Source: Candidatus Latescibacterota bacterium (lineage in GTDB: Bacteria; Latescibacterota; UBA2968; UBA8231). From it: 64,000 nt of DNA. Location: positions 416,001-480,000 of the forward strand of contig OZ241867.1 in the NCBI GenBank assembly GCA_965203175.1, read 5' to 3'. Positions 29,108-48,975 of this stretch are shown here, piece by piece. The notes under the pieces are model-generated. The model did not search any database. It was not told the DNA's origin and saw only the letters and a list, made by a program, of their open reading frames with translations. Position 1 is the first letter of the stretch; the number at the start of each line of letters is the position of its first letter. A program made the position numbers and the translations under genes.

Positions 29108-29140
29108 CAAAAAGGGACCTCGATTTGAGGTCCCTTTTTG
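29108..29140. terminator. Bidirectional intrinsic terminator between the ABC operon and the surface-protein array
   Basis: CAAAAAGGGACCTC-GATTT-GAGGTCCCTTTTTG: perfect stem with A/T tracts on both sides, between convergent genes. Confidence 0.85.
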
Positions 29141-29162
29141 CTAACGCGCTGTTTAGTGGTTG

Positions 29163-29456
29163 CTACTTCAGCAGTAGCATCTTCTTGACTTCGCGGAACT
29201 CGCCGCCGGCCTGCAAGCGATAGAAATACATCCCCGACGACAAGCTGTGCCCACTGTCGTTGGTCGCGTCCCACTCCACCGCGTAGCGACCCGCACTCTG
29301 ATGCTCGGCAACCAGCGTCCGCACCGGCTGACCGAGGACGTTATACACAGCCAGCTCCACGTCCGCCGCCTGCGGCAACGCATACTGGATCGTCGTCGTT
29401 GGGTTGAACGGGTTCGGGAAATTGTCCACCAAGGCGAATGCTTCAGGCCGCGTCTG
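29163..29456 (-). repeat. 294-bp C-terminal-domain repeat, copy 1 of 5 (others 32955-33248, 36627-36920, 39718-40011, 47341-47634)
   Basis: QTRP-to-stop segments have identical length, with long identical nucleotide stretches, in all five genes. Confidence 0.92.
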
Positions 29457-32400
29457 AATCACTGCCTTCGCCGCTCCTCCTGGGTCGCTCAGCGTGATCT
29501 CTACCTCGTCCCCGTCCAGCCCGTCAATCGTCCCGATCAGCCTGATGACCTCGTCGCCCTCCTCCAAGTTGTCGGCGACTGGGAGGAGGAGAAACCTTAC
29601 CGTCCCCGTTATCGAGCCGGCCGGAATCTCAATCCTAGGAGTAAATAGCGCGGCATAGTCCAAATCGCGCGTCGCCGTGGACTCGTTATCAATGGCCAAG
29701 CGCACGGTCGCGTCCTCATCCAACGCCTTGCCATCCAACGTGGCGGTCAACGCAATCGTGGTCAAAGAGGCATTTTCGTTTAACGCGTTCGGGTCCGCCG
29801 ACAGCCTAATGGACGTACTCGGCGCTTCGTCGTCCCTGATCTCGATGTCCGTCGATAGGGCCTCGCCTGTTGATACGAGCGTACCCTGCACACCCAAGGT
29901 CTTTAGGCCATCTTCATCATCGTTGTTGGTGGGAGTTATAGTCAGCGTTGTCGTCCCCTCGGTAGCACCGGCCGGAATGGTGATAAGCGCCTCCATTGTT
30001 GCCGTGTAGTCCACATCGCGCACCGCTTCCGTGCCACCACTTGGAGCCACAATAGTGAACCACACGTTCTCGTCAACTGTTACGGCGGCTTCCAAGATAA
30101 ACGTCAGCGAGATTTTCGTCGCCGCAGCGTCCTCGCGGATCACCGCAGGTGCCGCCGTCAACTCAGCGGCCATAACTCCAGATGCCTCAGCAGGATTGAC
30201 CGTGATGGAGAAAGTCAGCGTGGCCGTGACGCTGTTAGCGTCCGTCACTGTGTAAGTGATTCCAACCGCACCGTCGGTCGTTTCCGTCGGCGTGCCCCCA
30301 AGCATCCGCGTGGCCGCGTCAAATTCCAAGCCCACCGGCAACGCCGAGACGCTATACGTCAACTCGCCGGCACCGCCCGATGCCTCCGGCAGCATCCAAT
30401 CGGCTATCGCCGCATCAACCACGTACGTCTGGTCGTTGATCGAAGCACCTACTGCGAAGACCGGCACCGTTCCTGCCGCGGCTATGGTAATGGAGAAGGT
30501 CAGCGCGGCTGTGTCGTCGTCGTCGTCCGTCGCTGTGTAGGTGATTTCAACCGCACCGTCGGTCGTTTCCGTCGGCGTGCCCCCAAGCATCCGCGTGGCC
30601 GCGTCAAATTCCAAGCCCGCCGGCAACGCCGAGACGCTATACGTCAACTCGCCGTCGCCACCTAATGCCTCCGGCAGCATCCAATCGGCTATCGCCCTCC
30701 CAACCACATGTGTCTGGTCGGCGATGGCCGCGTCCGCAGCAAAGGAAGGCGCGCCACCCGCGCCGGTGTCTTGTAGCACTATATCCACAATGCCGACCGT
30801 CACCTTGGCTTCATCCCCGTCAGCATATCGGGTGATGATTTGATTGTTGGCGTACGGTACGGTCAGTCTGATGGTCTCGTCGGCCTCCACATTCTTGTCG
30901 TCAACAGGAGTGATGGTGATCGTCGTCGTCGCCGACACCGAGCCGGCCAGAATGATCAGGGGAGGGACTGTTGCCGTGTAATCTACATCGCGCGTCGCCG
31001 CCGCATCGTCATCATTCACCGCGCCGTCGCCATTAATATCCGCATCAATGGTCAAGAACACGACCACGTTATTGTCGAACACCTTCCCGTCCAACGTTCC
31101 GGTCACTGTCATAGAGGTCGTACCAGCCCCTTCGCTTATCGCGGTCGGCTCCGCCGTCAGCGAGATATTCATGCTATTCGTGTCGTCGTCGGCGATCGCG
31201 ATCGTTCTAGTCGCCAATACAGCACCGACCGTAATCTGTATATATATCGCCCCTCGCTGAGCCGCATCGGTGTCGTTCGTGGGGGTGATGGTGAACGTAG
31301 TCGTCCCCTCGGTAGCACCGGCTGGAATGGTGAGCGTCGGACCAAAGGCCAGCGTGTAATGCTCATCGCGCAGCGGAGTCTCCGTCACCGTATCGCCAGA
31401 CGGCAAAACCGCGCCAGTTGACAAAATCGTGAGATTCACCGTCTCGTCCTTGGCCGAGGCATCCGTCAAGGTAACTTTCAGCTCGATTGTCGTCTCACCA
31501 GCATCCTCGCGGATACTCTCTTGACTGAGCGTAATGGCATCGGCCGTGGCAACGATCCCCTTCTTTAGTGCTATATCCACAGGGTTGATCGTTAGCCCAT
31601 CGTCTGCAATCTGTATTCCCGGAGCGTCCGTATCAAAATCAAGAGATTCTACCCGAATCGTGCCAGGCAACTGGTTTTGGGGGGTGATGGTAATCGTCAC
31701 CATCCCCGACACCGCATTTCTTGGAATCGTCAGCGTCGCCAGTGTCACCGCGTAGTCCATATCGCGCTGCGCCTCGCGATTGTCCTCGGTCGCATCCGTT
31801 TGGTCGATATCACCATCGCCATCGGTATCAGTGTTGGGAACTTGCGTCAAGTCGGGATGATCGCCAATGACCAAGGCAAAACTCGTATCCTCGTTTAGAA
31901 CCTTTCCATCCAAGGTTGCCGTCACTGTGATATCGGTCTCATCATCGAACCTAGTTAGCTCGGCAATATCCACCGACAGCTTGATGTTTTGGCTAGCCTT
32001 GTCGTCGTCAATTAGCATAATCGTCGCCGATTCAACCGTCTTACCGCCGCCAGCATGGCCGCTGATCGCAACGGGAAGATCTTCGTCGATCACATCGTCA
32101 TTGATGGGGATGAAGGTGATTGTTTCCGTTGTCCTTTTCGCGCCAGCCGGAATCCTGAGCGTGGTTAGCTCTATCAGGTAGCGAGTATTAAGCCCCTCAG
32201 GGGGGATGCTCAAGAGCACATACGTATCCGCATCCACCGCGGTATCATCTGTCACTTCGACTGTCACTTCGACCTCGGTTTCACCGGCGTCCTCGCGCAC
32301 GCTCGCAGGATTCACCGACAGCTTCAGGTTCACCTGCACCGTTTGCTGGGCACTGCTCTCCAGTTCCTCATCGGAATCCTCCGCTACCTCGGTGGAATCC

Positions 32401-32843
32401 TCCGTATCCTCCGTTGTCGCTGGGCCGGGCACAATCGCCGTCAGGTCGCTCGCCAGGGCCCGGTCGTCCGCCGTGCATACCGCGCTGGCCGCCTCGCAAT
32501 CGACGGTCGGCGACAGGGAGATGGACACATCCGCGTTCGGCTCCGGCACAATGGTGATCTGCCAGCCTATGTTGCTGCCCTGCTGCAAGCGCCGCGCCCC
32601 TGTCACCACACCGCCGGTCACATCGAGCACATCGTCCCGCATGTTCACGTAGCTCATCTCGATTTCCTCACTGAAATGCACCTCGAACGTGAACTCGCTG
32701 CCGTCGTGCGACTCAGGTATCGCCTCAAAGCGCGCCGTCAGCGTCTGCGCCGCAGTCTCCCCGGCCCATCCCAACGCCAAACCAGAAGCCAACAGCCAAG
32801 ACAAATAGGCTAGGCGCTGCATCAACAACTTTGTATGTACCAT
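29163..32843 (-). CDS. Secreted acidic Calx-beta/putative-Ig repeat protein with FlgD-Ig/T9SS-type-A-like C-terminal domain (paralog A, 1226 aa)
   Basis: Signal peptide ending TAA|Q; Cys-pair N-terminal Ig-like domain; repeated 'RED AG.T', 'ATRD.DY', 'TITP.DD' Calx-beta-like units; two 'LP.GL.FDAATR.L.GTP' He_PIG-like units; [11 protein letters not shown]...SSGMYFYRL...KKMLLLK. Confidence 0.85.
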
Positions 32844-32891
32844 TACTCTACCTCCCCAAAAAGAGTGTTACCTGTTGATTTATAATATAGA

Positions 32892-32927
32892 AAATAGGGC
32901 CTCAAACTGAAGTTTGAGGCCCTATTT
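32892..32927 (-). terminator. Conserved hairpin after paralog B
   Basis: AAATAGGGCCTCAAACT-GA-AGTTTGAGGCCCTATTT. Confidence 0.8.
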
Positions 32928-32954
32928 CTCCGCTAGTACACAGTGTAGTAGTTG

Positions 32955-35900
32955 CTACTTGAGCAGCAGCATCTTCTTGACTTCGCGGAACTCTTCACCC
33001 GCCTGCAAGCGGTAGAAATACATCCCCGAAGACAAGCTGTGCCCACTGTCGTTGGTCGCGTCCCACTCCACTGCGTAGCGACCCGCGCTCTGATGCTCGG
33101 CAACCAGCGTCCGCACCGGCTGACCAACCACGTTATACACGGTCAACTCCACATCCGCCGCCTGCGGCAGCGCATACTTAATCGTCGTGGCCGGGTTGAA
33201 CGGGTTGGGGAAGTTGTCCGCCAAGGAAAAGGCCGTCGGCCGCGTCTGCAACGACAGCGACGCGGTCGCTCCATTGGCGTCCGTAACCGTGTACGCATAG
33301 GCGGTTTCGGCCGCCGCCGTCGGCGTCCCGACAATGGTTCGCGCGGCCGCATCAAACGTCAAGCCCGCTGGCAGGGCCGGCGACAGGCTGTAGGTCAGCG
33401 GTGCGGTGCCGCCCGATGCTGCCGGCAGCACGATGCTCTCCACGCGCTGGCCAACGACGAACTCGCGGATTTCAGCCAAGTCGTGCGAAGCCGTTGGCAC
33501 GACCTTACCGGAGGAGCCGAAAAGGTCGAAAAGATCGCCAAAAGTTGGCTCCTCTTTGACCGTGATAGAAAAGGTCACTGCGATGGTGTTTTCGGCTTCG
33601 TCAATCACCGTGTAGGTGACGGTGACTGCGTCGTCGGTCGCGGCCGTAGGCGTGCCCGAAATCGTCCGCGTGGCCGCGTCAAACGTCAGACCCGCTGGCA
33701 AGCCCGAGACACCATAACTTAGCTCACCAGTGCCGCCCATAGCTGTCGGCAACACGAGCGGGGGAATTGCCGCGCCAACCGTGTACTCTTGATTCGCGAC
33801 CGCGGCGGCAAAGCGAAAAGACGTATCCGATGAATCTGGCTCGGCCGACACCGTTGGCTCCGCTGCTGGATCGCTCAGCGTGATCTCTACTCCGTCCCCC
33901 TCCAGCCCGTCAACCACACCGATCAACCTAATGGTCTCGTCGCCCTCCGCTAAAGTATCGACAACTGGGAGGACAACAAACTGCCTCGACCCCGTTATCG
34001 AGCCGGATAGAATCACAAGCGATGCATCGGGATTGAACGACGAGGCGTAGTCCGCACCGCTCGTCGCTGTTGACCCATTATAGTCAACGGACAGGGTCAC
34101 GGTTGTATCCTCTGTCAACGCCTGACCGTCCAACGTGGCGGTCACCTCAACAGAGGTCCTGCCGTCTTGCTCGTTTATCGTGTGCGGCTTCACTGATAGC
34201 ACGATGGACGTACTCGGCGTTTCGTCGTCGGTGATCGTGATATCCGTCTGCGCTGAGTCACCTAATGCGGTTACCCGCACACCCAAGGACCTACGGCCAT
34301 CCATCTTAGCGTTGTCAAGGGGGTTGAGAGTAATCGTCCTCGTCCCTTCGGTCTCGCCTGCGGAAATGGTGATGGCCTTATCACTAGGTAGGCGTACCTC
34401 GTAATCGACATCGGGCACGGCCGGCGTGCCTGCACTTGGAGACACAAGATCGAACTGCACGGTCTCATCAGCCGGTGCGGCTTCCGCCAAGGTAGCTGTC
34501 AGGGTGATTTCCGTCGGCCCAGCGTCCTCGCGGATTGACGAATGACCTGACACCGAAATCGCGAGCGGTGGTTTAGGAGCAACCTCGATAGTGAAGCGTA
34601 GTACCGCGCTTTCGGGATTTTCCGCGTCGCCATCGAGCACCGTGTAGATAACGGAGACTGCGCCATCGGTCGCGGCCGTCGGTATCCCCGCAAGCGTCCG
34701 CGTGGCCGCGTTAAACGTCAAGCCTGCCGGTAGGGTCGAGACGCTGTACGTCGGGATGCCATCGCCCGTAGCTACCGGCAGCACGACAGGGGTAATCGCC
34801 GTGCCAACCGTGGCCGACAGATCGGCGGCGGCACCTGCAAAGGTAGGTGTTGTATCGCCTGCCGGCAGTTCCACACGCTTGCCAGCATCTTTCAGCGTTA
34901 TCGTCGCGGTATCGACCGCGATAGGATCACCATCTTCGTTTTGGGGATTGCTCGCAACCCTAAAGGTGATCGTCTCATTGGGCTCCACAGTCCCGTCGTC
35001 AATTGGGGTGATAGTGACCGTCCCCGAGCCCTGTGTCTGGCCGGCTGGAATCGTCAGAGAGGCGCGCGGGCGCACATAGTCCACATCGCGTATCGCCGTA
35101 CTAGCATCGGTCTGGAAGAGCAGGATCACGTCTTCGTCCAATGCCTTACCTGTTAAAGTTGCAGTGATCGTAACCTCAGTCGCCCCGGCGTCCTCTCTTA
35201 TCTCAGTAGGATTCGCCGACAGCTCAATGGACTGACTAAGCGTTTCGTCGTCGAGGATCGTGATCGCCGTCTGCGCCGAACCACCTGATGCGGTGGCCTG
35301 CACGCCCAAGGACCTATTGCCATCCTCCTCTTCATTATCCAATGGAGTGAACGTGAGAGTCGCCGTCCCCTTGGTCTTGCCAGCCAAAATGGTGATCGCA
35401 CTACTCGGAGGCAGTGTTGCTCTGTAGTCGACATCGCGCACGGCCGAGCCTGAGCCTGACATAATCCTGAACGTCACGGTCTCGTCAACCACTGAAGCTT
35501 TGTCCAAGGTAACTGTCAGCGCGATTTCCGTCTGTCCAGCATTCTCGCGGACCGAGGCAGGAGTCGCAGTCAGACTTGTAACACCAAGACTGGCGGTTGT
35601 TATTCTGATTTGTCCGGCAATAACATTCATGCCAGCTACATTACCCGTCAGCGTAATAATGCCAGTCCCTTGGTCCTTGGGAGTGATGGTAATCGTCGCT
35701 GTCCCCGACGCCTTGCGCCGGCGAATTTCTATCGTAGCTAGCGTCGCAGAGTAATCCGTATCGCGCCTCGCACTAGAACTAGCCTCATCAATAAGTAATT
35801 GAAAAGACACGTCGCTGGTCATCACCTTTCCATCCAATTCTGCTGTCACGACGATTTCGGTTGGACCAGCCCTCTTGCTTAGCATGGCCGGAGAAAACGT

Positions 35901-36386
35901 GAGGCGGATATTCTGACTCGCCTTGTCGTCGTCAATCAGCGTAATAGACGTCGAAAGGACCGGAGTAACACCGGCCGAGCCAGAAATCGTGATGTTAAGA
36001 TCATCAGCGATTCCGTCGTCTACATCATCGTTTCCTTTGAGATCATCATCAATAGGGGTGAAGATGATCGTCCCCGATGCCCGACTCTTGCCCTGCCGAA
36101 TGATAAGAGTGGGTAGCTCTATAACGAAGCGACTGTTGAGACCAGCCGTGCTTGGTGTCAAGTTCACATAGATATCATTAAGCACATTAGCTAATTCATC
36201 AGAATCGTCGTAATTTTTGGCTGTCACTGTGATTTCGGTCCTACCGGCTTCCTCGTGCACCCTCTCTCTGTCCACAGATAGCCGAATTTCCGCCGCCTTC
36301 ACGGGAGTCCATCCCAACACCAAACCGGCGGCCAAGAGCCAAGGCACATCGGCCAAACACCGCGTGAATAATTTCGTGCGTATCAA
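32955..36386 (-). CDS. Secreted Calx-beta/Ig repeat protein with FlgD-Ig/T9SS-like CTD (paralog B, 1143 aa)
   Basis: TTG start with AGGAGG RBS; homologous signal peptide; Calx-beta-like and He_PIG-like units; same CTD. Confidence 0.85.
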   Translation of the reverse strand: MIRTKLFTRCLADVPWLLAAGLVLGWTPVKAAEIRLSVDRERVHEEAGRTEITVTAKNYDDSDELANVLNDIYVNLTPSTAGLNSRFVIELPTLIIRQGKSRASGTIIFTPIDDDLKGNDDVDDGIADDLNITISGSAGVTPVLSTSITLIDDDKASQNIRLTFSPAMLSKRAGPTEIVVTAELDGKVMTSDVSFQLLIDEASSSARRDTDYSATLATIEIRRRKASGTATITITPKDQGTGIITLTGNVAGMNVIAGQIRITTASLGVTSLTATPASVRENAGQTEIALTVTLDKASVVDETVTFRIMSGSGSAVRDVDYRATLPPSSAITILAGKTKGTATLTFTPLDNEEEDGNRSLGVQATASGGSAQTAITILDDETLSQSIELSANPTEIREDAGATEVTITATLTGKALDEDVILLFQTDASTAIRDVDYVRPRASLTIPAGQTQGSGTVTITPIDDGTVEPNETITFRVASNPQNEDGDPIAVDTATITLKDAGKRVELPAGDTTPTFAGAAADLSATVGTAITPVVLPVATGDGIPTYSVSTLPAGLTFNAATRTLAGIPTAATDGAVSVIYTVLDGDAENPESAVLRFTIEVAPKPPLAISVSGHSSIREDAGPTEITLTATLAEAAPADETVQFDLVSPSAGTPAVPDVDYEVRLPSDKAITISAGETEGTRTITLNPLDNAKMDGRRSLGVRVTALGDSAQTDITITDDETPSTSIVLSVKPHTINEQDGRTSVEVTATLDGQALTEDTTVTLSVDYNGSTATSGADYASSFNPDASLVILSGSITGSRQFVVLPVVDTLAEGDETIRLIGVVDGLEGDGVEITLSDPAAEPTVSAEPDSSDTSFRFAAAVANQEYTVGAAIPPLVLPTAMGGTGELSYGVSGLPAGLTFDAATRTISGTPTAATDDAVTVTYTVIDEAENTIAVTFSITVKEEPTFGDLFDLFGSSGKVVPTASHDLAEIREFVVGQRVESIVLPAASGGTAPLTYSLSPALPAGLTFDAAARTIVGTPTAAAETAYAYTVTDANGATASLSLQTRPTAFSLADNFPNPFNPATTIKYALPQAADVELTVYNVVGQPVRTLVAEHQSAGRYAVEWDATNDSGHSLSSGMYFYRLQAGEEFREVKKMLLLK

Positions 36387-36604: not shown

Positions 36605-36626
36605 CTAACGCGCTGTTTAGTGGTTG

Positions 36627-39717: not shown

Positions 39718-42700
39718 CTACTTGAGCAGCAGCATCTTCTTGACTTCGCGGAACTCGCCGCCCGCCTGCAAGCGGTAGAAATACATCCCCGACGACAAGC
39801 TGTGTCCCCTGTCGTTGGTCGCATCCCACTCCACTGCGTAGCGACCCGCGCTCTGGTGCTCGGCAACCAGCGTCCGAACCAGCTGACCAACCACGTTATA
39901 CACGGTCAACTCCACATCCGCCGCCTGCGGCAGCGCATACTGGATCATCGTGGCCGGGTTGAACGGGTTGGGGAAGTTGTCGGCCAAGGAAAAGGCCGTC
40001 GGCCGCGTCTGCAACGAAAGCGACGCGCTCGCCCCATTGGCGTCCGTAACCGTGTACATATAGGCGGTTTCGGCCGCCGCTCTCGGCGTGCCCGCAATGG
40101 TTCGCGTGACCGCATCAAACGTCAAGCCCGCGGGCAGGGCCGGCGACAGGCTGTAGGTCAGCGGTGCGGTGCCGCCCGATGCTGCCGGCAGCACGATGCC
40201 CTCTACGCGCTGACCAACGATGAATTCGCGGATTTCAGCCAAGTCGTGCGAGGCCGTCGGAATGACCTTACCGGAGGAACCGAAAAAGTCAAAAAAGTCG
40301 CCGAGCGACAGCCCCTCATTGACCGTGATGTTGAAGGTCAACACAGCGGCGCTCCCGCCGCTGTCGATCACCGTGTAGATGACGATGACCGCGCCATCGG
40401 TCGCTGCCGTAGGCGTGCCCGAAATCGTCCGCGTGCCCGCGTCAAATACCAAGCCTGCGGGCAGGGCCGAGACGCTGTACACCAGCGGTGCAGTGCCGCC
40501 CGATGCTGCCGGCAGCACAAGCGGGGTAATCGTCGTCCCAGCGGTGTACGATTGGTCTGGGATCGCGGTGTTGTCGGCGAAGGCGAGGGACGAATCACCC
40601 GGATCACCCGGATCACCCGGATCAGGCGTCATCGGTGCTTGGTCGCTCAGGGTGATCTCTGCCTCATCTCCCGCCAGCCCGTTAACTACACCGATCAGCT
40701 TGATGGTCTCGTTGCCCTCCACTAGATCGTCGTCGATTATGCGGATCGCAAACTGCGTGGACCCCATTATCGCGCCGGCTGGAATCACAATCAGCGGATT
40801 GAATAGCGCAGCGTAATCTACATCGCGCGTCGCCGTTGACGTACCATCAATGGCTATTACCACAGTTGCGTTCTCTCCCAACACCTTCCCGTTCAACGTG
40901 GCGGTCACCGTAACATTAACCTCACCGCTTCCCTCAATTATCGCGTGCGGATTCACCGACAGCGCGATGGCCGTACTCGGCGTTTCGTCATCGACGATTT
41001 TGATGTCCGTCATTAGCGTCGCACCAGAGGCGAACGTAGCCTGCACACCTATTGCTCTCAGGCCGTCCACTGCGGTGTTGTTAATGGGGGTGAAGGTGAG
41101 GATCGTCGTCCCAACGGTAGTACCGGCCGGAATGGAAACAACCGTCTCCAAGGATGCAACGTAGTCCACATCGCGCACGGCCTGCCTGCCTTCGCTTGGA
41201 GCAACAACCGTGAACGTCACGATCTCGGGTGCGGTCTTGGCAGGATCCAAGGCCACGGTCAACGCGATTTGCGTCGTCCCAGCGTCCTCGCGGATCACCG
41301 AAGGAGTCGCCATTAGCTGCGCATCGGCAACCGGGGGCGGCATCTCACCCTCTTCGACCGTGATGGAGAAGATCAACGCGCTGGCGTCCCTGTCGCTGTC
41401 GATCACCGTGTAGATGATGGTGACCGCGCCATTGGTCGCAGCCGTAGGCATGCCCGAAAGCGTCCGCGTGGCCGCGTCAAACACCAAGCCCGCCGGTAGA
41501 GTCGAGACGCTGTACGTCAGAGGTGCAGTGCCGCCCCTAGCTTCCGGCAGTACGAGCGCGTTTATCGCCGTTCCAACCGTGTACGATTGGTTGGCAATCG
41601 AATCCGCGGCAGCGAAGGTCGGGCGCGTCGGATCCTGCGGCCCAGGCTGCTCCCCGACCGCGCTGGAATCTTTCAGCGTTATCGCCACTGGAGCGACTAT
41701 CAGCTCCTGGATGTCCCCATCTTCATCTATGGCTCTGGGGTTCCCCAGACTCCTCAAGCCGATCTTCTCGTCGCCTTCCGTCCTGCTGTCGGCGAGGGGA
41801 GTGATGGAGAGCGTCGCCGTCCCTTGTATCGCGCCGCCTGGAATCACCAAAGGGCTAAGGACGGCTGTGTAGTCTAAATCGCGCGTCGCCGCCTTATCAT
41901 TCTCATCCACCTTTCCATCGTTATTAATGTCGTCACTAATGACCAAGGCCACGACCACGTTATCGCCAAAGACCTTCCCCTGCAAGGTGCCGGTCACTGT
42001 AACTGCGGTCGGACCTGCTCCCTCGGTTATCTGGGCTGGACTCACCTCTAGCGTGATCGAATCGCTCGTCGTGTCGTCGTCGGTAATCAGGATTCCCGTG
42101 CTGAAGAGTGGGTTGTTGCCAACCCTCGCATTCACCGTGAAAGCTCGGGGATCATCTTTGTCGTTGTTGTCCCTGGGGGTGACGGTCATCGTCGTCGTCC
42201 CCTTGGTCTCACCCTTCGGGATGATGAGCGGCTCCACGCTCGCAGAGTAATCCACATCGCGCTGCGCCGCCACAGCACCGTTGAAATCGTCACCCGGAAT
42301 GTCGCTGTCGTCCGAAATAGTGAACTGCACTATTTCGTCCGTCACCAAGGCGTTTTGCAAGGTAACTTCCAGCGTGATCACCTTCGGCCCAGCGTCTTCG
42401 CGGATCGAGAAAGGCGTTGCTGTCAGCCCAGTAATCGCTTTAGCGGGATCACCTGTTAGATCGATTGACGCACCATTAACCATTATCGTACGTCCATCTT
42501 CAACTTGCGGGTTTTTACTAGCAACCACCCGAATGACGCCGGTTCCCGCGTTCTTGGGGCGGATGGTAATCGTCGCCCTCCCCGATATCCTGCGGTCTGG
42601 AATGGTTATCGGGGCCATCGTCGCAGTGTAATCCACATCGCGCTCCGCGCTACCCGCAAAATCCTCATCAAGAGTCAAGGCAAAGCGCAGGTCTTCTCCC

Positions 42701-45700
42701 AGCGTACTTCCATTTAGGGTGGCCGTCACGACGATATCGGTCGTACCATCACTCTTGCCTATACTGGCATCAGAGAACGAGAGATTGATCTGTGTACTTG
42801 GCTTGTCGTCGTCAACTAGCTCAATCGTCGTATCCCCGACGTTCCCAGCACCGGCCCTACCTTCGATTGTGATCGGAAGATCATTGTTTTCGACCGCATC
42901 ATCAATGGGAGTGAAGGAGATCGTCCCCACCGCCTCTTTCTCGCCTTTCGGAATCCTGAGAGTGGGCAGCGTTATGAGGAAGCGGCTGTTGAGACCGGCA
43001 ACGGATTCTGCTGCGAGATTCAAGGCTACATACGTATCCACCGTCACTGTGTTGGGTGTTTTGGCTTTCACCGTGATATCGGTCGTACCGGCATCCTCGC
43101 GCACACTACTAGGATTCACCGTTAGGGTAATAGCACCCTCCAGCAGTTCGTCGTTGTCTTCGATCGTGCCTGTCGCCATCGCAGTGGCCAGCGTCACGCC
43201 GGCCGACGGGCTCGACAGCGTCAGCGTAAAGGTCTCCTTCGGCTCATTGAAACTGTCGTCTGTGGTGAGCACAGACACCGTCTTAGACATCTCACCCGAT
43301 GCGAAAGTCAGCACACCCGACACCGCCGTGAAGTCGGTGCCGCTGGCCGTGTCGCTAGACCCAATCGAAGTCGCGTAAGTCACCGTCACGTCTTGCCCGC
43401 TCACCGGCGACAGCGTCACCGTGAAGACCACCGGACTGCCTTCCTCGCCGCTTGCAGCCGCCACGCTCAGCGACGGCGAGGCCTCGTCGTCTATGATCGT
43501 GCCCGTCGCTGTCGCGTCGGTGGGGGACAGCGTTGCGCCCGACGGGCTCGACAGCGTCAGCGTAAAGGTCTCGTTCGGCTCATCAACACTGTCGTCTATG
43601 GTGACCACAGGCACCATCTTAGACAGCTCACCCGATGCGAAAGTCAGCGTCCCCGACGCCGCCGTGAAGTCGGTGCCGCTGGTTGCCGTGCCGGGCGCGG
43701 TCGCGTAAGTCACCGTCACGTCTTGCCCGCTCACCGGCGACAGCGTCACCGTGAAGACTACCGGACTGCCTTCCTCGCCGCTTGCAGCGGCCACGCTCAG
43801 CGACGGCGAGCCGTCGTTGTCCGTGATCGTGCCCGTCGCCGTCTCAGTGGCCAGCGTCACGTCGGCCGACGGGTTCAACAGCACTAGCGTAAAGGTCTCC
43901 TTCGGCTCATCAACAGTGTCGTCTATGGTGACCACAGACACCGTCTTAGACGTCTCACCCGATGCGAAAGTCAGCACACCCGACGACGCCGTGAAGTCGG
44001 CACCGCTGGTTGCCGTGCCAGACGTGGTCGCGTAAGCCACCTCCACCGTCTCGGTGCTCACCGCCCGTGACAGCGTCATCGTGAAGACCACCGGACTGCC
44101 TTCCACGCCGCTTTCAGCGGCCACGCTCAGCGACAGCGGATCGTCGTTGTCTTCGATCGTGCCTGTCGCCGTCGCAGTGGCCAGCGTCACGCCGGCCGAC
44201 GGGTTCAACAGCACTAGCGTAAAGGTCTCGTTCGGCTCATCAACACTGTCGTCTAGGGTGACCACAGACACCATCTTAGACATCTCACCCGATGCGAAAG
44301 TCAGCGTCCCCGACGCCGCCGTGAAGTCGGTGCCGCTGGTTGCCGTGCCTGGCGTGGTCGCGTAAGTCACCTCCACCGGCTGTGTGCTCACCGCCCGTGA
44401 CAGCGTCACCGTGAAGACCACCGGACTGCCTTCCACGCCGCTTTCAGCGGCCACGCTCAGCGACAGCGGATCGTCGTTGTCCGTGATCGTGCCCGTCGCC
44501 GTCGCAGTGGCCACCGACGCACTCGACAGCACCAGCGTAAAGGTCTCGTCCTGCTCATCAACACTGTCGTCTAGGGTGACCACAGACACCGTCTTAGACG
44601 TCTCACCCGATGCGAAAGTCAGCACACCTGACGCCGCCGTGAAGTCGGTGCCGCTGGTTGCCGTGCCTGGCGTGGTCGCGTAAGTCACCTCCACCGGCTG
44701 TGTGCTCACCGCCCGTGACAGCGTCACCGTGAAGACCACCGGACTGCCTTCCACGACGGGATCAGCGGCCACGCTCAGCGACAGCGGCCCGTCGTTGTCT
44801 TCGATCGTGCCTGTCGCCGTCGCAGTGGCCAGCGTCGCGCCGCCCGACGGGTTCAACAGCACCAGCGTAAAGGTCTCATCCTGCTCATCAACACTGTCGT
44901 CTAGGGTGACCACAGACACCGTCTTAGACGTCTCACCCGATGCGAAAGTCAGCGTCCCCGACGCCGCCGTGAAATCGGTGCCGCTGGTTGCCGTGCCTGG
45001 CGTGGTCGCGTAAGTCACCTCCACGGATTGCCCGCTCACCGCCCGTGACAGCGTCACCGTGAAGACCACCGGACTGCCTTCCACGACGGGATCAGCGGCC
45101 ACGCTCAACGACAGCGGTCCGTCGTTGTCTTTAATCGTGCCTGTCGCCGTCGGAGTGGCCAGCGTCACGTCAGCCGACGCGTTAAACAGCACCAGCGTGA
45201 AGGTCTCGTCCTGCTCATCAACACTGTCGTCTAGGGTGACCACAGACACCGTCTTAGACACCTCACCCGCTGTAAAAGTCAGCATACCCGACATCGCCGT
45301 GAAGTCGGTGCCGCTGGTTGCCGTGCCGGAGGCGGTCGCGTAAGTCACCTCCACCGTCTCGGTGCTCACCGCCCGTGACAGCGTCACCGTGAAGACCACC
45401 GGATTGCCTTCCACGACGGGATCAGCGACCACGCTCAGCGACAGCGGCCCGTCGTTGTCTTTAATTGTGCCTGTCGCCGTCGGAGTGGCCAGCGTCACGC
45501 CGGCCGACGGGTTAAACAGCGTCAGCGTAAAGGTCTCGTCCTGCTCATCAACGCTGTCGTCTAGGGTGACCACAGACACCGTCTTAGACGCCTCACCCGC
45601 TGTAAAAGTCAGCGTCCCCGACGCCGCCGTGAAGTCGGTGCCGCTGGTTGCCGTGACAGGCGTGGTCACGTAAGTCACCTCCACCGTCTCGGTGCTCACC

Positions 45701-47235
45701 GCCCGTGACAGCGTCACCGTGAAGACCACCGGACTGCCTTCCACGACGGGCTCAGCGACCACGCTCAGCGACAGCGGCTCGTCGTTGTCTTTAATCGTGC
45801 CTGTCGCCGTCGGAGTGGCCAGCGTTACGCCGGCCGACGGGCTCGACAGCATCAGCGTAAAGGTCTCATCCGGCTCATCAACAGTGTCGTCTATGGTGAC
45901 CACAGGCACCGTCTTAGACCTCTCACCCGCTGTAAAAGTCAGCCTACCCGACGTCTCCATGAAGTCGGTGCCGCTGGTTGCCGTGACAGGCGTGGTCGCG
46001 TAAGTCACCTCCACCGTCTGTGTGCTCGCCGCCGACAGCGTCACCGTGAAGACCACCGGACTGCCTTCCACGACGGGCTCAGCGGCCGCGCTCAGCGACG
46101 GGAATTGGCTGATAATCGTACCCGTCGCCGCCGAGGTGGCCAGCGTTGCGTTCGTCGCCGCCGTCAGCAACAGTGTGAAGGTCTCGTCAGGTTCTGTAGT
46201 GCCTTCGTTTATGATTGCCACAGATATCGTCCCCGTCGTCGCACCCGCAGCAATAGTCAGCGTCCCCCCGGTCGTCGCCCCGAAGTCGGTGCCGCTGGTT
46301 GCCGTGCCGGGGGCGGTCGAGTAAGTCACCGTCACGTCTTGCCCGCTCGCCGCCGACAGCGTTACCTCGAAGTGCATAAAGGTTCCTTCGTTCGCTCTCG
46401 CGTTGGCCACGTTCACCAACGGCGGGTTGTCGTTGTCGGTAATCGTACCCTTCGCCGTCGCGGTGCCCAACCCTGCGTTCACCGGCTCCGGATTCGCCAG
46501 CAGCGTCAGCGTGAAGGTCTCCCCATTAGCCTCATCGTTATCACCCTCATCGGCACTGTCGTCTATGATTGGCACAGATATCGTCCCCGTCTCCGCACCC
46601 GCAGCAATAGTCAGCGTCCCCGTCGTCGCCGCGAAGTCGGCTTGGACGGCATCGTCGTCATTCGCAACCGAGGTCGCGTAATTCACCTCCACGGATAGCC
46701 CGCTCACCGCCGACAGCGTCACCGGGAAGTTCATAGTTCCAGCACCCTCGGACGCGGTCACGGCGGCCACGCTCACCGTCGGCGGAGCGTCGTTGTCTAT
46801 GATCCCGCCCTTTGCGGTCGGGACCAAGATCGTTCCACTCGACGCGCTCAACAGCCTCAGCGTGAAGGTCTCCCCACTAGCAGCATCGTTATCACCCTCA
46901 TCGATATCGTCGTCTGTGGTGGGCACACTTATCACCCCCGACGTCGTCGTACCCACACCAATAGTCGCCACACCCGGTACCGCCGTGAAATCGGTTCCTA
47001 GCGTTGCCGTGTCGCCAGGCTCAATCGTGAGCGTGTAGTTCACACGCACCTCCTGAGTGCTCGTCTCCGTCATGTGCACCGTGAACTCCACAGGAGAACC
47101 CTCGGTCGCGCTCGCGTACGTAACATATATCTGCTGCGCCACGGCCTCCTCGGCCCCCCCCAACACCAAACCGACGGCCAGCAGCCAAGGCGCGTACGCC
47201 AATCGCCGCAGCAAAAGCTTTGAATATCGTAGCAT
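39718..47235 (-). CDS. Giant secreted Calx-beta repeat adhesin-like protein with FlgD-Ig/T9SS-like CTD (paralog B', 2505 aa)
   Basis: Signal peptide AVA|Q; 12 N-terminal canonical Calx-beta repeats (EG..V.FTVTLS...V.Y.T..GTA.SG.DF...SG.LTF..GE..KTV.V...DD..DE..ETFTL.L....ATGTI.DND); then a paralog-B-like body and CTD. Confidence 0.9.
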   Translation of the reverse strand: MLRYSKLLLRRLAYAPWLLAVGLVLGGAEEAVAQQIYVTYASATEGSPVEFTVHMTETSTQEVRVNYTLTIEPGDTATLGTDFTAVPGVATIGVGTTTSGVISVPTTDDDIDEGDNDAASGETFTLRLLSASSGTILVPTAKGGIIDNDAPPTVSVAAVTASEGAGTMNFPVTLSAVSGLSVEVNYATSVANDDDAVQADFAATTGTLTIAAGAETGTISVPIIDDSADEGDNDEANGETFTLTLLANPEPVNAGLGTATAKGTITDNDNPPLVNVANARANEGTFMHFEVTLSAASGQDVTVTYSTAPGTATSGTDFGATTGGTLTIAAGATTGTISVAIINEGTTEPDETFTLLLTAATNATLATSAATGTIISQFPSLSAAAEPVVEGSPVVFTVTLSAASTQTVEVTYATTPVTATSGTDFMETSGRLTFTAGERSKTVPVVTIDDTVDEPDETFTLMLSSPSAGVTLATPTATGTIKDNDEPLSLSVVAEPVVEGSPVVFTVTLSRAVSTETVEVTYVTTPVTATSGTDFTAASGTLTFTAGEASKTVSVVTLDDSVDEQDETFTLTLFNPSAGVTLATPTATGTIKDNDGPLSLSVVADPVVEGNPVVFTVTLSRAVSTETVEVTYATASGTATSGTDFTAMSGMLTFTAGEVSKTVSVVTLDDSVDEQDETFTLVLFNASADVTLATPTATGTIKDNDGPLSLSVAADPVVEGSPVVFTVTLSRAVSGQSVEVTYATTPGTATSGTDFTAASGTLTFASGETSKTVSVVTLDDSVDEQDETFTLVLLNPSGGATLATATATGTIEDNDGPLSLSVAADPVVEGSPVVFTVTLSRAVSTQPVEVTYATTPGTATSGTDFTAASGVLTFASGETSKTVSVVTLDDSVDEQDETFTLVLSSASVATATATGTITDNDDPLSLSVAAESGVEGSPVVFTVTLSRAVSTQPVEVTYATTPGTATSGTDFTAASGTLTFASGEMSKMVSVVTLDDSVDEPNETFTLVLLNPSAGVTLATATATGTIEDNDDPLSLSVAAESGVEGSPVVFTMTLSRAVSTETVEVAYATTSGTATSGADFTASSGVLTFASGETSKTVSVVTIDDTVDEPKETFTLVLLNPSADVTLATETATGTITDNDGSPSLSVAAASGEEGSPVVFTVTLSPVSGQDVTVTYATAPGTATSGTDFTAASGTLTFASGELSKMVPVVTIDDSVDEPNETFTLTLSSPSGATLSPTDATATGTIIDDEASPSLSVAAASGEEGSPVVFTVTLSPVSGQDVTVTYATSIGSSDTASGTDFTAVSGVLTFASGEMSKTVSVLTTDDSFNEPKETFTLTLSSPSAGVTLATAMATGTIEDNDELLEGAITLTVNPSSVREDAGTTDITVKAKTPNTVTVDTYVALNLAAESVAGLNSRFLITLPTLRIPKGEKEAVGTISFTPIDDAVENNDLPITIEGRAGAGNVGDTTIELVDDDKPSTQINLSFSDASIGKSDGTTDIVVTATLNGSTLGEDLRFALTLDEDFAGSAERDVDYTATMAPITIPDRRISGRATITIRPKNAGTGVIRVVASKNPQVEDGRTIMVNGASIDLTGDPAKAITGLTATPFSIREDAGPKVITLEVTLQNALVTDEIVQFTISDDSDIPGDDFNGAVAAQRDVDYSASVEPLIIPKGETKGTTTMTVTPRDNNDKDDPRAFTVNARVGNNPLFSTGILITDDDTTSDSITLEVSPAQITEGAGPTAVTVTGTLQGKVFGDNVVVALVISDDINNDGKVDENDKAATRDLDYTAVLSPLVIPGGAIQGTATLSITPLADSRTEGDEKIGLRSLGNPRAIDEDGDIQELIVAPVAITLKDSSAVGEQPGPQDPTRPTFAAADSIANQSYTVGTAINALVLPEARGGTAPLTYSVSTLPAGLVFDAATRTLSGMPTAATNGAVTIIYTVIDSDRDASALIFSITVEEGEMPPPVADAQLMATPSVIREDAGTTQIALTVALDPAKTAPEIVTFTVVAPSEGRQAVRDVDYVASLETVVSIPAGTTVGTTILTFTPINNTAVDGLRAIGVQATFASGATLMTDIKIVDDETPSTAIALSVNPHAIIEGSGEVNVTVTATLNGKVLGENATVVIAIDGTSTATRDVDYAALFNPLIVIPAGAIMGSTQFAIRIIDDDLVEGNETIKLIGVVNGLAGDEAEITLSDQAPMTPDPGDPGDPGDSSLAFADNTAIPDQSYTAGTTITPLVLPAASGGTAPLVYSVSALPAGLVFDAGTRTISGTPTAATDGAVIVIYTVIDSGGSAAVLTFNITVNEGLSLGDFFDFFGSSGKVIPTASHDLAEIREFIVGQRVEGIVLPAASGGTAPLTYSLSPALPAGLTFDAVTRTIAGTPRAAAETAYMYTVTDANGASASLSLQTRPTAFSLADNFPNPFNPATMIQYALPQAADVELTVYNVVGQLVRTLVAEHQSAGRYAVEWDATNDRGHSLSSGMYFYRLQAGGEFREVKKMLLLK
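43150..46110 (-). repeat. Intragenic tandem repeat, 9 near-identical units of about 330 bp (Calx-beta); 3 more diverged units extend to about 47130
   Basis: Recurrent GTGAAGACCACCGGACTGCCTTCC at about 330-bp spacing (one unit is 318 bp); the antisense ORF track shows the same periodicity. Confidence 0.92.
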
Positions 47236-47284
47236 TACTCTACCTCCCCAAGTTAAGAGTAATTACTGGTGATTTAGAATGTGG

Positions 47285-47322
47285 GAGCTAGGGCCTCGCG
47301 TTGAAGTTGGAGACCCTAGCTC
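47285..47322 (-). terminator. Diverged copy of the conserved hairpin, after paralog C
   Basis: GAGCTAGGGCCTC...GAGACCCTAGCTC; the single mismatch becomes a G-U pair on the coding (minus) strand. Confidence 0.7.
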
Positions 47323-47340
47323 ACTGATTTACTGCAGATG

Positions 47341-48975
47341 CTACTTGAGCAGCAGCATCTTCTTGGTTTCGAGGAACTCACCGCCCGCCGCCAAGCGGTA
47401 AAAATACATTCCCGAGGACAAACTATGCCCATTGTCGTTGGTCGCGTCCCACTCCACCGCGTAGCGACCCGCGCTCTGATGCTCAGCAACCAGCGTCCGA
47501 ACCGGCTGACCGAGGACGTTATAGACCATCAGTTCCACGTCCGCCGCCTGCGGCAGTGAATACTTGATCGTCGTCGCCGGGTTGAATGGGTTCGGATAGT
47601 TGCTCGCCAACGCGAACACCGCCGGACGCGTCTGCACCTGTACTGGTACCGGCAGCGCCAAGCGGTTGAAGCCAAACGCGCTGTCATACGTCTGGTTGTC
47701 GGTGATCTCGATGACCGTATGCTCGATCTCCGTCGTCGGACGGAACACCAAGCTCAGCGCCAACTCGCCGTCGAAGACCAGGTCCCCGTAGGCGACCAGC
47801 GCCAATTTGCCTTCTTCGTCGCTCAGCACCTGCGGCGCAGCCAACGCGCTGCCACCTAACGGCTGATCGGTCAGCACCTCGACGAACTCCAGCTTGTCGG
47901 CCTCATACTGAACCTGCAAGCCATAGCCCTTGATCGCGGCAAAGTCCGCCAAGCGCACGTCGAGGACAAAGTCCTCACCCACGCTCGGCAGCGCCGTCCG
48001 CGCATCCAGATACACCCGCGCATCCGCATTCAGGCCGGCGAACATGGGCACGCGCTTGCCCGCCGCAGCCGTGCTGCGATTAAAGTTGTCGGCAAAGACG
48101 AAGAAATCGTCAAAGTCAATCGTCGCGCTCGGTGCTAGGTCGAACGCCGGATCAAACCCGGCGTCTTCTGCGGTCAAACCGAAGCTGTCAGCGAAGATGA
48201 AGAAGTCGTCGAAACCGATGCGGTTGTCAGTACCGAACAGGCCGAACAGCGCGCGACCTTCGCCATCTACCGCGAGGTTGCGGACAGCCATCGCCGTCTG
48301 CTCGATATCGGAACCCGTCTCGTTGTCCAAGGTGTAGGGCCGCACCTGATAGGTGTAGCGCACGCCGTTGAGCGCCGTCGCATCGACAAAGGACGTAACA
48401 CCTGCATCGACCTGCGCGATCCTGGTGAACTCATCTTCGCCCGCCGCGCGGCGATAGATGTTGTAGCCATAGACGCCGACGACCGGCTCCGCTGCAGCCG
48501 GGCCGACAGCTCCAGCAACAACCCCCTGCAAGAGCCGGTCCGACGGCGAAAGTGTCCACGTCAGGACGATGCGGCTGCCTTGATCGTTGGGCGCATCCAA
48601 CACGCTGAGCGACGGCACAGCTTCCAGAGGCGGCAGCACCACCTCAATGCTGAACGGCAGCGACGCACTGGCATTGGCACCATCTGTCACGGTGTATGTG
48701 TACTCCGCGATAGAAGTCACCACCAGCGGCGTACCCGAGATCGTTCGCGTGGCCGCGTCAAATGTCAAGCCCACAGGCAGAGCTGGCGCGAGGCTGTAGG
48801 TAAACGGCGGCGTGCCGCCGGTAACTTCCGGCAGCATCCCTGGCTCAATCGCCGTACCAACCTCATACGTCAGGATTCCAACCTCGCGTTCATCGGCCAA
48901 AGCAGTATGAGCACCGAGAAAGAGACCGCTTGCTAGAAGGACTAGCAAGCCAACAGTTGATAACATTCGCTGCAT
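47341..48975 (-). CDS. Secreted protein: He_PIG-like Ig + FN3-like + dockerin/EF-hand-like + cohesin-like + FlgD-Ig/T9SS-like CTD (paralog C, 544 aa)
   Basis: Signal peptide ALA|D; 'DAPNDQG..I.LTW...GYNIYR...F.D......YTYQV' (FN3); twin 'FDDFF.FAD.F' motifs; 'VGEDF.LDV...GY...VQY....LEF' (cohesin-like); CTD. Confidence 0.82.
   Translation of the reverse strand: MQRMLSTVGLLVLLASGLFLGAHTALADEREVGILTYEVGTAIEPGMLPEVTGGTPPFTYSLAPALPVGLTFDAATRTISGTPLVVTSIAEYTYTVTDGANASASLPFSIEVVLPPLEAVPSLSVLDAPNDQGSRIVLTWTLSPSDRLLQGVVAGAVGPAAAEPVVGVYGYNIYRRAAGEDEFTRIAQVDAGVTSFVDATALNGVRYTYQVRPYTLDNETGSDIEQTAMAVRNLAVDGEGRALFGLFGTDNRIGFDDFFIFADSFGLTAEDAGFDPAFDLAPSATIDFDDFFVFADNFNRSTAAAGKRVPMFAGLNADARVYLDARTALPSVGEDFVLDVRLADFAAIKGYGLQVQYEADKLEFVEVLTDQPLGGSALAAPQVLSDEEGKLALVAYGDLVFDGELALSLVFRPTTEIEHTVIEITDNQTYDSAFGFNRLALPVPVQVQTRPAVFALASNYPNPFNPATTIKYSLPQAADVELMVYNVLGQPVRTLVAEHQSAGRYAVEWDATNDNGHSLSSGMYFYRLAAGGEFLETKKMLLLK

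Follow-up and report, generated by a model that had tools for sequence, protein, structure and literature searches.

Organisation of the locus

The stretch of DNA analysed here (the window, 64,000 nucleotides) belongs to an uncultured, likely sponge-dwelling Latescibacterota bacterium (genome G000, assigned to this phylum from its relatives) and carries, at positions 29163-48975, a tandem array of minus-strand ORFs, g1 to g5 (Table 1). Their coordinates confirm the five co-oriented genes reported in a first-pass annotation, whose claim that four of them begin with a homologous signal peptide also holds: a common motif is found in g1–g4, while g5 – the first gene of the array – has a different one. 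Read by eye, the N-termini of the array proteins follow the basic–hydrophobic–AxA pattern of a putative Sec signal peptide. For g3, the RBS-preceded ATG (993 aa) was taken as the start, the longest ORF beginning at 39671. The 3′ neighbour of g1 is a convergent ABC ATPase gene, with the terminal hairpin in between.

Table 1. Array genes, their parts and the conserved flanks (window positions)
Feature	Position	Strand	Remarks
DUF4340 gene	25788..26870	+	conserved flank; lies near amidohydrolase gene in array-less outgroup congeners
Hairpin after g1	29107..29141	-	terminal, before ABC ATPase gene; z -6.4
g1, type C	29163..32843	-	1226 aa; signal peptide, unnamed Ig-like tip U, RRRR-HH-RR, CTD
CTD of g1	29163..29456	-	TIGR04183
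Tip domain U of g1	32421..32747	-	no Pfam match
Hairpin after g2	32891..32928	-	terminator-like
g2, second B-type gene	32955..36386	-	1143 aa; signal peptide, RRRR-H-RR-HH, CTD
CTD of g2	32955..33248	-	TIGR04183
Hairpin after g3	36566..36603	-	
g3, type C	36627..39608	-	993 aa; signal peptide, RRRR-H-RR, mosaic CTD
CTD of g3	36627..36920	-	TIGR04183
Hairpin after g4	39657..39694	-	terminator-like
g4, type B	39718..47235	-	2505 aa; signal peptide, 12 Calx-beta as tip, stalk RRRR-H-RR-HH, CTD
CTD of g4	39718..40011	-	TIGR04183
Calx-beta tip of g4	43150..47130	-	12 units
Hairpin after g5	47285..47322	-	z -4.0
g5, type A	47341..48975	-	544 aa; own signal peptide, H, F, D, K, CTD
CTD of g5	47341..47634	-	TIGR04183
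Amidohydrolase gene	49074..49988	+	conserved flank, other side

A hairpin follows all five genes, as had been claimed (z -4.0 to -6.4, with 0 of 200 shuffles as stable). The junctions between genes had also been described as constant, which stands for the hairpins but not for the remainder, as the gap before g2 is a 240-bp AT-rich region that beyond its hairpin is unrelated to the other junctions. A promoter scan returned 5 sites against 6.3 expected, that is, no enrichment. Contigs from RNA run X18 cover parts of g1 and g2, a coverage that may include DNA carry-over and whose depth cannot rank the genes.

It might appear that such an array arose by collapse or chimerism during assembly, the more so as no contig spans it entirely in the runs checked and the contamination figure of the genome is 6.5%. 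This concern, already raised in the first-pass annotation, is not borne out: contigs from run X1 (possibly the source sample) match the unique bodies without a single difference and at a uniform depth of 21-30x, one of them bridges the junction between the 993-aa and 1143-aa genes (g3/g2), run X3, from another study, contains counterparts of three bodies (97-99% identical), and the same locus is found in 18 other genomes. An assembly artefact is extremely improbable. Run X3 covers g2–g4 at ~80x and leaves the g1 body uncovered; as no contig clearly joins across the gap, this is only a hint that g1 was lost in that strain.

Stalks and tips

The array proteins consist of a conserved Ig stalk and CTD with exchangeable N-terminal tips. 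Their modules are designated H (He_PIG/cadherin-like Ig), R (Calx-beta-like), D (dockerin-like), K (cohesin-like) and F, which we take to be FN3-like. Pfam matches support the Ig and Calx-beta bodies recognised at first pass, those behind the Calx-beta likeness of R being weak; in a sequence search for solved relatives, only H found a match and R none.

The Calx-beta tip of g4 occupies the slot of a tip of ~130-190 aa found in most relatives, and its inner units form a 330-bp tandem, with 78-92% aa identity to the nearest unit. A recent copy from the two other Calx-tipped genes of the genome was ruled out as its source (only 44-57% aa). Domain U, the tip of g1, is present, doubled or absent in the C genes of relatives, and is missing an in-frame stretch of 297 nt in one RNA contig; its ESM Atlas matches, all to hypothetical or Ig-like clusters (0.89-0.92), may serve as a lead.

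In g5, a dockerin-like double motif (E 7.6e-4) lies beside a cohesin fold (TM 0.70-0.75 to target), as in cellulosomal and Clostridium perfringens modules (PDB 2y3n, 2jh2), from which g5 differs in that a single non-enzymatic T9SS cargo carries the two together, with putative binding. Sequence E-values are weak here, and the model has pLDDT 65-87 over the cohesin and <50 over the dockerin. AlphaFold with a 24-row alignment reached a mean pLDDT of 52, with only the cohesin and CTD usable; a model without alignment (pLDDT 39) was discarded.

The sorting domain and its probable export machinery

The last 97 codons of the five genes align without indels. The resulting domains had been called identical, which is wrong: pairwise identity is 83.5-95.2% nt, with dS of 0.14-0.57, dN far under dS and longest identical runs of 22-87 nt (10 pairs). 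All five CTDs exceed the TIGR04183 cut-off of 23 (32.5-34.4 bits), PF18962 is at cut-off in only two of the five, and the best Pfam match is FlgD_ig. Judged by TIGR04183, the array CTD is a T9SS type A signal. It is not special to the array: 79 type A-like C-terminal domains of this kind occur across the genome.

The first-pass annotation had proposed this tag together with a T9SS-like exporter outside Bacteroidota, and the outer-membrane part of such a machine is present. SprA scores 615 bits against a cut-off of 200 (over cut-off in 41/41 class genomes), PorU 632 against 420 (matched in 40/41, 25 over cut-off) and the PorV family 223.5 against 90 (PorV in 40/41), with porU adjoining porV; the strict PorV equivalog model remains below threshold (153.9 versus 250). 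The CTD is predicted to bind the PorV of the genome: the complex model scored 0.88 against 0.00 for the best of 3 controls, a result that may be memory of solved complexes of this kind. Its runs share at least 93% of contacts, with partner pLDDT of at least 91, and the mark applied is passed by 116 of 157 solved pairs and 2 of 215 mismatched ones.

The proposed exporter does not stand for the motor and ring. Curated models found no match to GldL or GldM in G000 and GldM_1st in none of the 41 class genomes; custom models built from 20 operons, run with relaxed filters on ORFs of at least 150 aa, reached at best E 1.1 and 0.021, on coiled-coil-like ORFs. GldN is likewise undetected in all 41 (custom model best E 2), and GldK shows partial matches only, far under cut-off (84 versus 350 bits). 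In a control sample from a Bacteroidota-type phylum, GldN was found in 29/121 and SprA in 96/121, so a divergent ring could be missed. As GldL, GldM and GldN power substrate release in Flavobacterium (PMC10994853), we infer export of the array proteins rather than regard it as proven.

The same absence, by curated and custom models, together with the FlgD_ig match could indicate that the FlgD-Ig-like CTD is no T9SS signal at all, with the proteins periplasmic or sent by another route and a motor-less SprA/PorV/PorU set kept as a relic or for another job. This is very improbable, given that SprA, PorU and PorV are intact and near-universal in the class, that CTDs of this type are so numerous in the genome, and that the PorV model, which may echo solved complexes, scored above its controls. 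CTD proteins have been described as restricted to Bacteroidota (PMC10202324), and a list of other FCB phyla as possible carriers does not include Latescibacterota (PMC11285876). The literature searched contained nothing on T9SS with Latescibacter, on a motor-less T9SS in the phylum, on the array family or on MITE-borne adhesins, a scope outside which subscription journals or supplements may contain T9SS distribution tables bearing on novelty.

Probable exchange among sorting domains

Whether CTDs are less diverged than bodies was put forward at first pass as a test, and between types they are: fourfold sites differ at 0.20-0.28 in the CTD, 0.43-0.44 between B and C bodies and 0.16-0.24 in flanking orthologs, the CTD value being lowered by stronger codon bias (saturation 0.49 versus 0.65). 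Trees of the same 40 B and C genes disagree. The stalk tree separates B from C with 100/100 and a single change of type, whereas the CTD tree – short, at 273 columns, with 14/56 branches starred – needs 11 changes and rejects the monophyly of C (p-AU 0.037). Starred clades join CTDs of different types from the same genome in G000, G005 and G008.

One CTD of the window, that of g3, is a mosaic: the g3 stalk is 85% identical (nt) to g1 and 69% to g2/g4, and its CTD is 91% identical to g1 and 93-95% to g2/g4. Within the CTD, the 8 sites that unite g3 with g1 are confined to nt 1-60, and the 7 in conflict all come after nt 150 (post hoc p 3e-4).

These patterns support gene conversion among the CTDs as the probable cause of the discordance. 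Purifying selection on the protein and codon usage, acting after old duplications, could by themselves keep CTDs alike, and several observations fit that account: the low dN, the strong codon bias, the type A CTDs that mostly cluster together, the modest AU p-value and run-length permutation tests for conversion tracts, which fell short of significance (best p 0.063 among 15 pairs). Selection alone is nonetheless unlikely in view of the starred cross-type clades, the ordered mosaic in g3 and the 11 changes of type against one on the same genes. Two further counts weigh against conversion: the nearest neighbour of 36/59 CTDs is a same-type CTD in another genome, and within-genome cross-type distance is smaller than cross-genome distance in only 11/17, 10/16 and 13/18 genomes.

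Variation among relatives

The locus occurs in 19 congeners in a single order, A-B-C, with 3-5 genes where complete, bearing out the suggestion that gene number varies. Variation is concentrated in the N-terminal tips and internal repeats, and fusions and deletions map to the internal H/R repeats and tips. In G011, the array is split at an ORF that we take to be of IS type, with no CTD junction at the break.

The first-pass annotation read the constant junctions (CTD, hairpin, RBS and signal peptide) as dedicated handles by which adhesin cassettes would be reshuffled, presumably at a high rate. CTD exchange and a gene number of 3-5 could be taken in this sense, as could 16 of 20 examined G004 copies of the family, in which the CTD end, stop and hairpin are repeated in tandem as 1-6 duplicates, showing that this segment does recombine in G004. 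The reading is not supported, however, and is improbable: cassette order does not vary across species, only number, tips and repeats; most CTDs are closest to their own type elsewhere; the would-be handles are only as alike as the CTD identities given above; the hairpin after the first gene (g5) is swapped for another in many relatives; rearrangements fall in repeats and tips, or in G011 at the presumed IS-type ORF; and no site-specific recombinase or integrase was found among the 41 window proteins scanned in Pfam. With variation falling mostly in tips and internal repeats and no recombinase among the proteins scanned, CTD conversion appears to be episodic and unremarkable rather than part of a programmed cassette system. 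In itself, the array is a commonplace duplicated locus of putative adhesins.

As to its origin, outgroup congeners G024 and G015 have an empty site. Together with G016, they carry a cohesin–dockerin–CTD gene with the same hairpin, in which the stalk module was not detected (two of the three are truncated where their contigs end). A second locus, lying 82-98 kb upstream from the window's array, also contains a cohesin–dockerin surface-protein gene.

Dispersed copies

In G004, the family has ~20 dispersed copies, with inverted repeats at their ends and 8-bp target duplications; both ends were located in 8/20, with a perfect 8-bp duplication in 4/8, and repeat matches numbered 48 versus 2 in a control. 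The same ends flank an LRR gene. We take them to be IS1 ends, although PF03400 (IS1) was not found in G004 and 17 loci with the repeats showed no transposase. Transposition has likely moved whole adhesin and LRR genes here, as non-autonomous elements. No such ends or target duplications were found near the window array in G000, and the dispersed copies in G009 lack the G004 ends, with no shared sharp boundary found.

Relation to known systems and implications

LapA/Bap-type adhesins are large Ig-repeat adhesins with variable tips. With these and the cadherin-like domains of SraP (PDB 4m03), the array proteins share a Calx-beta/cadherin-like repeat stalk of variable repeat number, on which specificity would be distal. 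Unlike them, the array uses a T9SS tag – rather than T1SS, accessory Sec or LPXTG – and its family consists of tandem paralogs with swappable tips (Calx-beta, U, a variable ~150-aa domain, subtilase, LRR). The adhesin domains of Porphyromonas rgpA/kgp/hagA are paralogs homogenised by gene conversion. They are likewise mosaic, sharing conserved segments through homologous recombination, but here the shared segment is a secretion tag plus the hairpin 3′ of it, and the genes stand in tandem in a fixed order.

Like the type A cargo of the Bacteroidota SprA–PorV–PorU system (PMC10202324, PMC10994853), array proteins combine a putative signal peptide with TIGR04183 in a genome with SprA, PorU and PorV-family genes, the CTD being predicted to dock on PorV; they differ in belonging to Latescibacterota, in the undetected GldLM motor and GldN ring protein and in a CTD with a FlgD-Ig-like insert. 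The G004 elements resemble MITE-flanked, trans-mobilised passengers such as mcr-5 with IR148 and MITE-flanked integrons (PMC10969869) in their short inverted repeats, 8-bp target duplications and lack of an internal transposase, yet their cargo is 5-7 kb adhesin and LRR lipoprotein genes, in ~20 diversified copies on one chromosome, and the window array is without such ends.

The products of the array are modular Ig-repeat proteins and likely surface adhesins. Their type A tag would bind PorV for export through SprA, probably followed by cleavage and anchoring by PorU, leaving a Calx-beta-like and cadherin-like stalk – likely calcium-stiffened – that ends in the CTD, with the exchangeable tip facing outwards. 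The older cohesin–dockerin gene at the second locus is the likely source of the CTD and hairpin, and the ancestor of one clade likely received the array by insertion between the DUF4340 and amidohydrolase genes. Thereafter, genes would have been duplicated in tandem or lost, internal repeats gained or lost and tips replaced, likely by ordinary homologous recombination, with episodic gene conversion likely keeping the CTDs alike. The anatomy, the outer-membrane T9SS genes, the differences among genomes and the discordant trees are observed; secretion, anchoring, adhesion and the role of conversion are inferred. That five paralogous, T9SS-tagged Ig-repeat genes arose and evolve in this way is, in our judgement, quite probable.

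More tentatively, and with the balance of our opinion somewhat against it, sponge-associated Latescibacterota may display variable-tip adhesins through a T9SS working without the GldLM motor and GldKN ring, hence with a different energiser or none. The stalk and CTD would be a transferable display scaffold to which new tips are added (Calx-beta, subtilase, LRR) and which, in at least one species, is spread around the chromosome by transposase-free elements carrying host-interaction genes. If true, the symbiont would possess a multigene family resembling those of antigenic variation. The family illustrates one way in which surface diversity may arise in a symbiont lineage: the stalk and tag stay constant, tips are exchanged and, in G004, whole adhesin and LRR genes have likely been transposed.

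Five paralogues with a conserved end

The five minus-strand genes of the array (g5 to g1) share a final stretch of 97 codons that aligns without indels; together with the hairpins at the gene ends and four homologous signal peptides, the arrangement described in the first-pass annotation can be read directly in the window sequence. Its 'identical' sorting domain, however, is not identical: the C-terminal sorting domains (CTDs) of the five genes agree pairwise at 83.5–95.2% of nucleotides, with a dS of 0.14–0.57, a dN of 0.025–0.10 and no common run longer than 87 nt.

An assembly collapse or chimera is argued against by short-read contigs: those of run X1 – possibly the source sample of the assembly – show even depth and no differences over the unique gene bodies, and one of them crosses the g3–g2 junction. 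The bodies of g2, g3 and g4 are also recovered at 97–99% in X3, a run from another study; no short-read contig of either run spans the whole array. A sponge habitat of the host is likely, because pieces of 0.6–1.9 kb from X7, a run labelled sponge metagenome, match the array with few differences.

Array genes, neighbouring genes and related loci. Modules: C, CTD; D, dockerin-like; F, FN3-like (presumed); H, He_PIG; K, cohesin-like; R, stalk repeat; U, tip; X, Calx-beta.
Feature	Position	Content
g5 (type A)		H-F-D-K-C
g4 (type B)		X12-RRRR-H-RR-HH-C
g3 (type C)	start most likely 39608	RRRR-H-RR-C; 993 aa from this start
g2 (type B)		RRRR-H-RR-HH-C
g1 (type C)		U-RRRR-HH-RR-C
Possible defence pair	window 8499-10894	Schlafen/AlbA_2 gene with HATPase_c_4, adjoining HNH endonuclease gene
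GldAFG-like transporter	window 21250-26870	ABC ATPase, permease-like gene, GldG-like auxiliary protein (PF09822), DUF4340; adjoins and predates array
DUF5687 and ABC ATPase	window 26881-29075	accompanies the array in some genomes, lost in part or completely in others; not at empty outgroup site
Ordinary metal or vitamin uptake cluster	window 50066-54930	TonB-dependent receptor, periplasmic binding protein, FecCD permease, ATPase
Second (older) locus, L065	G000:C1:337358-346885	B–A fusion, 3175 aa; then 684-aa CTD gene
L104	G000:C1:365464-371835	family member
Extra stalk genes without CTD, ending three relatives' arrays	L057:13109-15736; L059:951-3242; L060:9257-11308
Element in relative G004	L168:738-2102	1365 bp, same ends as adhesin copies, perfect 8-bp duplication, LRR lipoprotein gene (377 aa)
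Gene in relative G004	L169:711-3192	LRR lipoprotein, 788 aa, flanked by same inverted repeats

Domain anatomy

The architectures were assigned with profiles made from the window's own repeats. By Pfam, the X module is Calx-beta and the H module He_PIG – the latter also matching the cadherin-like domains of SraP (E 4e-20) – and the R module gives only weak Calx-beta matches. In g5, an F module that we take to be FN3-like precedes a dockerin-like D module (E 7.6e-4) and a cohesin-like K module (E 0.004; Foldseek TM 0.70–0.75 to 2jh2). The search gave no domain name for the U tip of g1, 297 nt of which are skipped in frame in one RNA contig (depth 3.5), which weakly hints that the tip is polymorphic in a close relative. 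The array proteins are acidic and Thr-rich, a composition expected of calcium-binding Ig stalks. Two further family members with 13 Calx-beta units, at L065 and L104, are near-collinear and 58–88% identical in amino acids to one another.

Is the sorting domain exchanged between paralogues?

Stalk and CTD trees were compared for 40 type B and C genes, leaving out the type A genes, two genes without the last R pair, the fused gene and a short gene. The stalk tree separates B from C at 100/100 with a single change of type, whereas the CTD tree needs 11, and monophyly of the C CTDs is rejected (p-AU 0.037). A CTD tree of 59 genes contains a starred clade of g2, g3 and g4 that excludes g1, as well as starred same-genome clades in two relatives, G005 (types A, B and C) and G008 (A and B). 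The stalk of g3 is 85% identical in nucleotides to that of g1 and 69% to those of g2 and g4, yet its CTD is closer to g2 and g4; within this CTD, all eight g1-like sites fall in nt 1–60 and all seven conflicting sites after nt 150 (p 3e-4 for the ordering, a post hoc value).

The CTDs might also be alike without any gene conversion, as negative permutation tests for conversion tracts and a codon bias stronger in the CTD than in the bodies would suggest; moreover, the nearest CTD is of the same type in another genome for 36/59 genes and of another type in the same genome for only 10/59, and distances within a genome are below those across genomes in only 34 of 51 comparisons. The 11 changes of type, the same-genome clades and the ordered mosaic of g3 speak against this, and episodic gene conversion of the CTD appears likely from these sequence comparisons. 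As the first-pass annotation had supposed, the CTD is less diverged than the bodies, with fourfold-site differences between types of 0.20–0.28, close to those of flanking orthologues (0.16–0.24), against 0.43–0.44 in the bodies.

The locus across the genus and its origin

In a comparison with 18 relatives of the source genome (G000), five CTD genes were found in the array of one genome, four in 4, three in 11 and two in 3, the last being cut by contig ends; the predicted variation in gene number is thus real. The arrays differ in gene count, in how many H units are present and in the tip, which can be absent or consist of U, UU, U plus FN3-like, a domain of 130–210 aa with variable loops or, in the window, 12 Calx-beta units. 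The order of types A, B and C – told apart by the module next to the CTD, a cohesin in A, H in B and R in C – is kept throughout the arrays compared, which goes against the proposed reshuffling of cassettes; programmed shuffling of these adhesin genes does not seem likely on such sequence evidence. In relative G004, the array is preceded by a short gene and a fused B–A gene, and in G011 it is split, with what is presumably an IS-type ORF at one break. In G012, the stalk–CTD chassis is fused to LRR blocks (L097).

The array's CTD subfamily (E <= 1e-35) occurs in 22/24 genomes of the genus and 0/16 other genomes of the class. In G024 and G015 – the outgroup on the DUF4340 tree (100/100) – the array flanks lie about 300 bp and 1.7 kb apart, respectively, with no array gene between them. 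At the second locus, G015, G016 and G024 carry a gene that ends in F-D-K-CTD, is followed by the same hairpin and shows no detected stalk module; in array-bearing genomes, a stalk is fused to this F-D-K-CTD gene. On the simplest reading, tag and hairpin would derive from this older gene and have been carried along in each duplication, which would give the array its cassette look.

A probable secretion tag and exporter without a detected motor

TIGR04183 is passed by the CTDs of all five genes, bearing out their resemblance to the T9SS type A sorting domain; ending in such a CTD, the array proteins are, by analogy, like Bacteroidota type A cargo. A profile of the five CTDs matches 132 ORFs in the source genome (79 C-terminal of the array's kind, 39 of the TPNGDG kind, 4 other and 10 not C-terminal), and the array's close subfamily has eight members there.

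The postulated T9SS-like exporter in a non-Bacteroidota lineage finds support. SprA (615 bits; cut-off 200), PorU (632; cut-off 420) and, adjoining porU, a PorV-family gene (223.5; cut-off 90, yet under the strict PorV cut-off) are present; across 41 genomes of the class, SprA is above cut-off in all, PorU is matched in 40 (25 above cut-off) and PorV in 40. A predicted PorV–CTD complex scores 0.88 against 0.00 for the best control, with at least 93% of contacts shared between runs and a partner pLDDT of at least 91; this mark is reached by 116/157 solved and 2/215 mismatched pairs. Since PorV–CTD complexes have already been solved, the model indicates likeness to them rather than binding. The PorV genes of G000 and G010 (L138, L139) are 99% identical, but 73–77% identical to those of other congeners, and the DUF4340 flanks of the two genomes are no closer than average; a shared allele replacement at PorV is possible.

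GldL, GldM and GldN, by contrast, have no match in the source genome, also with models made from 20 gldKLMN operons, and GldK has only partial matches. GldM and GldN are matched in 0/41 class genomes, and GldN in 0/5 Ignavibacteria/Calditrichia genomes. As a control, 121 genomes of a Bacteroidota-type phylum (G042, G046–G165) gave GldN matches in 29 and SprA in 96, leaving 67 SprA-positive genomes without a GldN match; in some of them, the SprA score is nearly canonical. This may mean that systems without a motor are common among non-model FCB bacteria, or else that the models overlook divergent rings; the motor is therefore graded as not detected, a state not peculiar to this genus. Because motor and ring are not detectable in this Latescibacterota host, its machine is not classed as a canonical T9SS. 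In Flavobacterium, release of substrates from the translocon requires the motor, according to an excerpt of PMC10994853. CTD proteins are termed Bacteroidota-restricted in a passage of PMC10202324, and a passage of PMC11285876 considers T9SS possible in further FCB phyla, Latescibacterota being unnamed there; a literature search combining 'T9SS' and 'Latescibacter' found nothing.

Dispersed, likely mobile copies in a relative

Of 25 family matches in the G004 genome, four belong to the array, one to the second locus and 20 to unrelated sites. Nineteen new sites plus the second locus were studied in detail, and one more locus briefly (L066–L085, L099). Many copies share 650–850 bp upstream and 230–590 bp downstream that terminate in inverted repeats. 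Both ends are present in 8/20 copies, four of these with a perfect 8-bp target duplication and a fifth with 7 of 8 by eye, and these adhesin genes are likely to move by transposition. No transposase lies inside the copies, and a cognate one was identified neither by a search of G004 for PF03400 (IS1) nor in 17 repeat-bearing loci. The inverted repeat has 48 matches in G004 (control, 2), 1 in G005 and 0 in G009, and a 135-bp element is found in 1/41 genomes; short stand-alone elements in G004 carry 8-bp duplications in 2/9 cases. G004-type ends are absent from the window array. In relative G009, four dispersed copies of 1380–1450 aa occur alongside an additional copy at the older locus and a remnant of 211 aa (L088–L093); G004-type ends are absent from its dispersed copies, and no mechanism of their spread was found.

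Within 0–1 kb past the stop, 16/20 G004 copies have one to six tandem 130–150 bp duplicates of CTD end, stop codon and hairpin, and a poly-C tract of about 10–18 nt lies upstream of many. The first 500 residues are 42–58% identical on average, against 81–98% beyond residue 600, and nearest neighbours change along the copies: a conserved stalk bears a hypervariable mosaic N-terminus. In three copies (L083, L084, L099) the N-terminus is of another kind; the one scanned has a subtilase there. Bounding LRR lipoprotein genes as well (L168, L169), the inverted repeats seem to belong to an element family that carries genes of a host-interaction type. Mobilisation of passenger genes by MITEs is reported, in a passage of PMC10969869, for resistance genes and integrons, whereas the passengers in G004 are adhesin and LRR lipoprotein genes; a literature search found no MITE-mobilised adhesins.

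Significance

Although real, the array is, in its mechanism, an ordinary cluster of paralogues that encode T9SS-type cargo, with tips that can be exchanged and, probably, episodic conversion of the tag. The interest of the system lies less in the array than in the undetected motor of its exporter and in the G004 elements.
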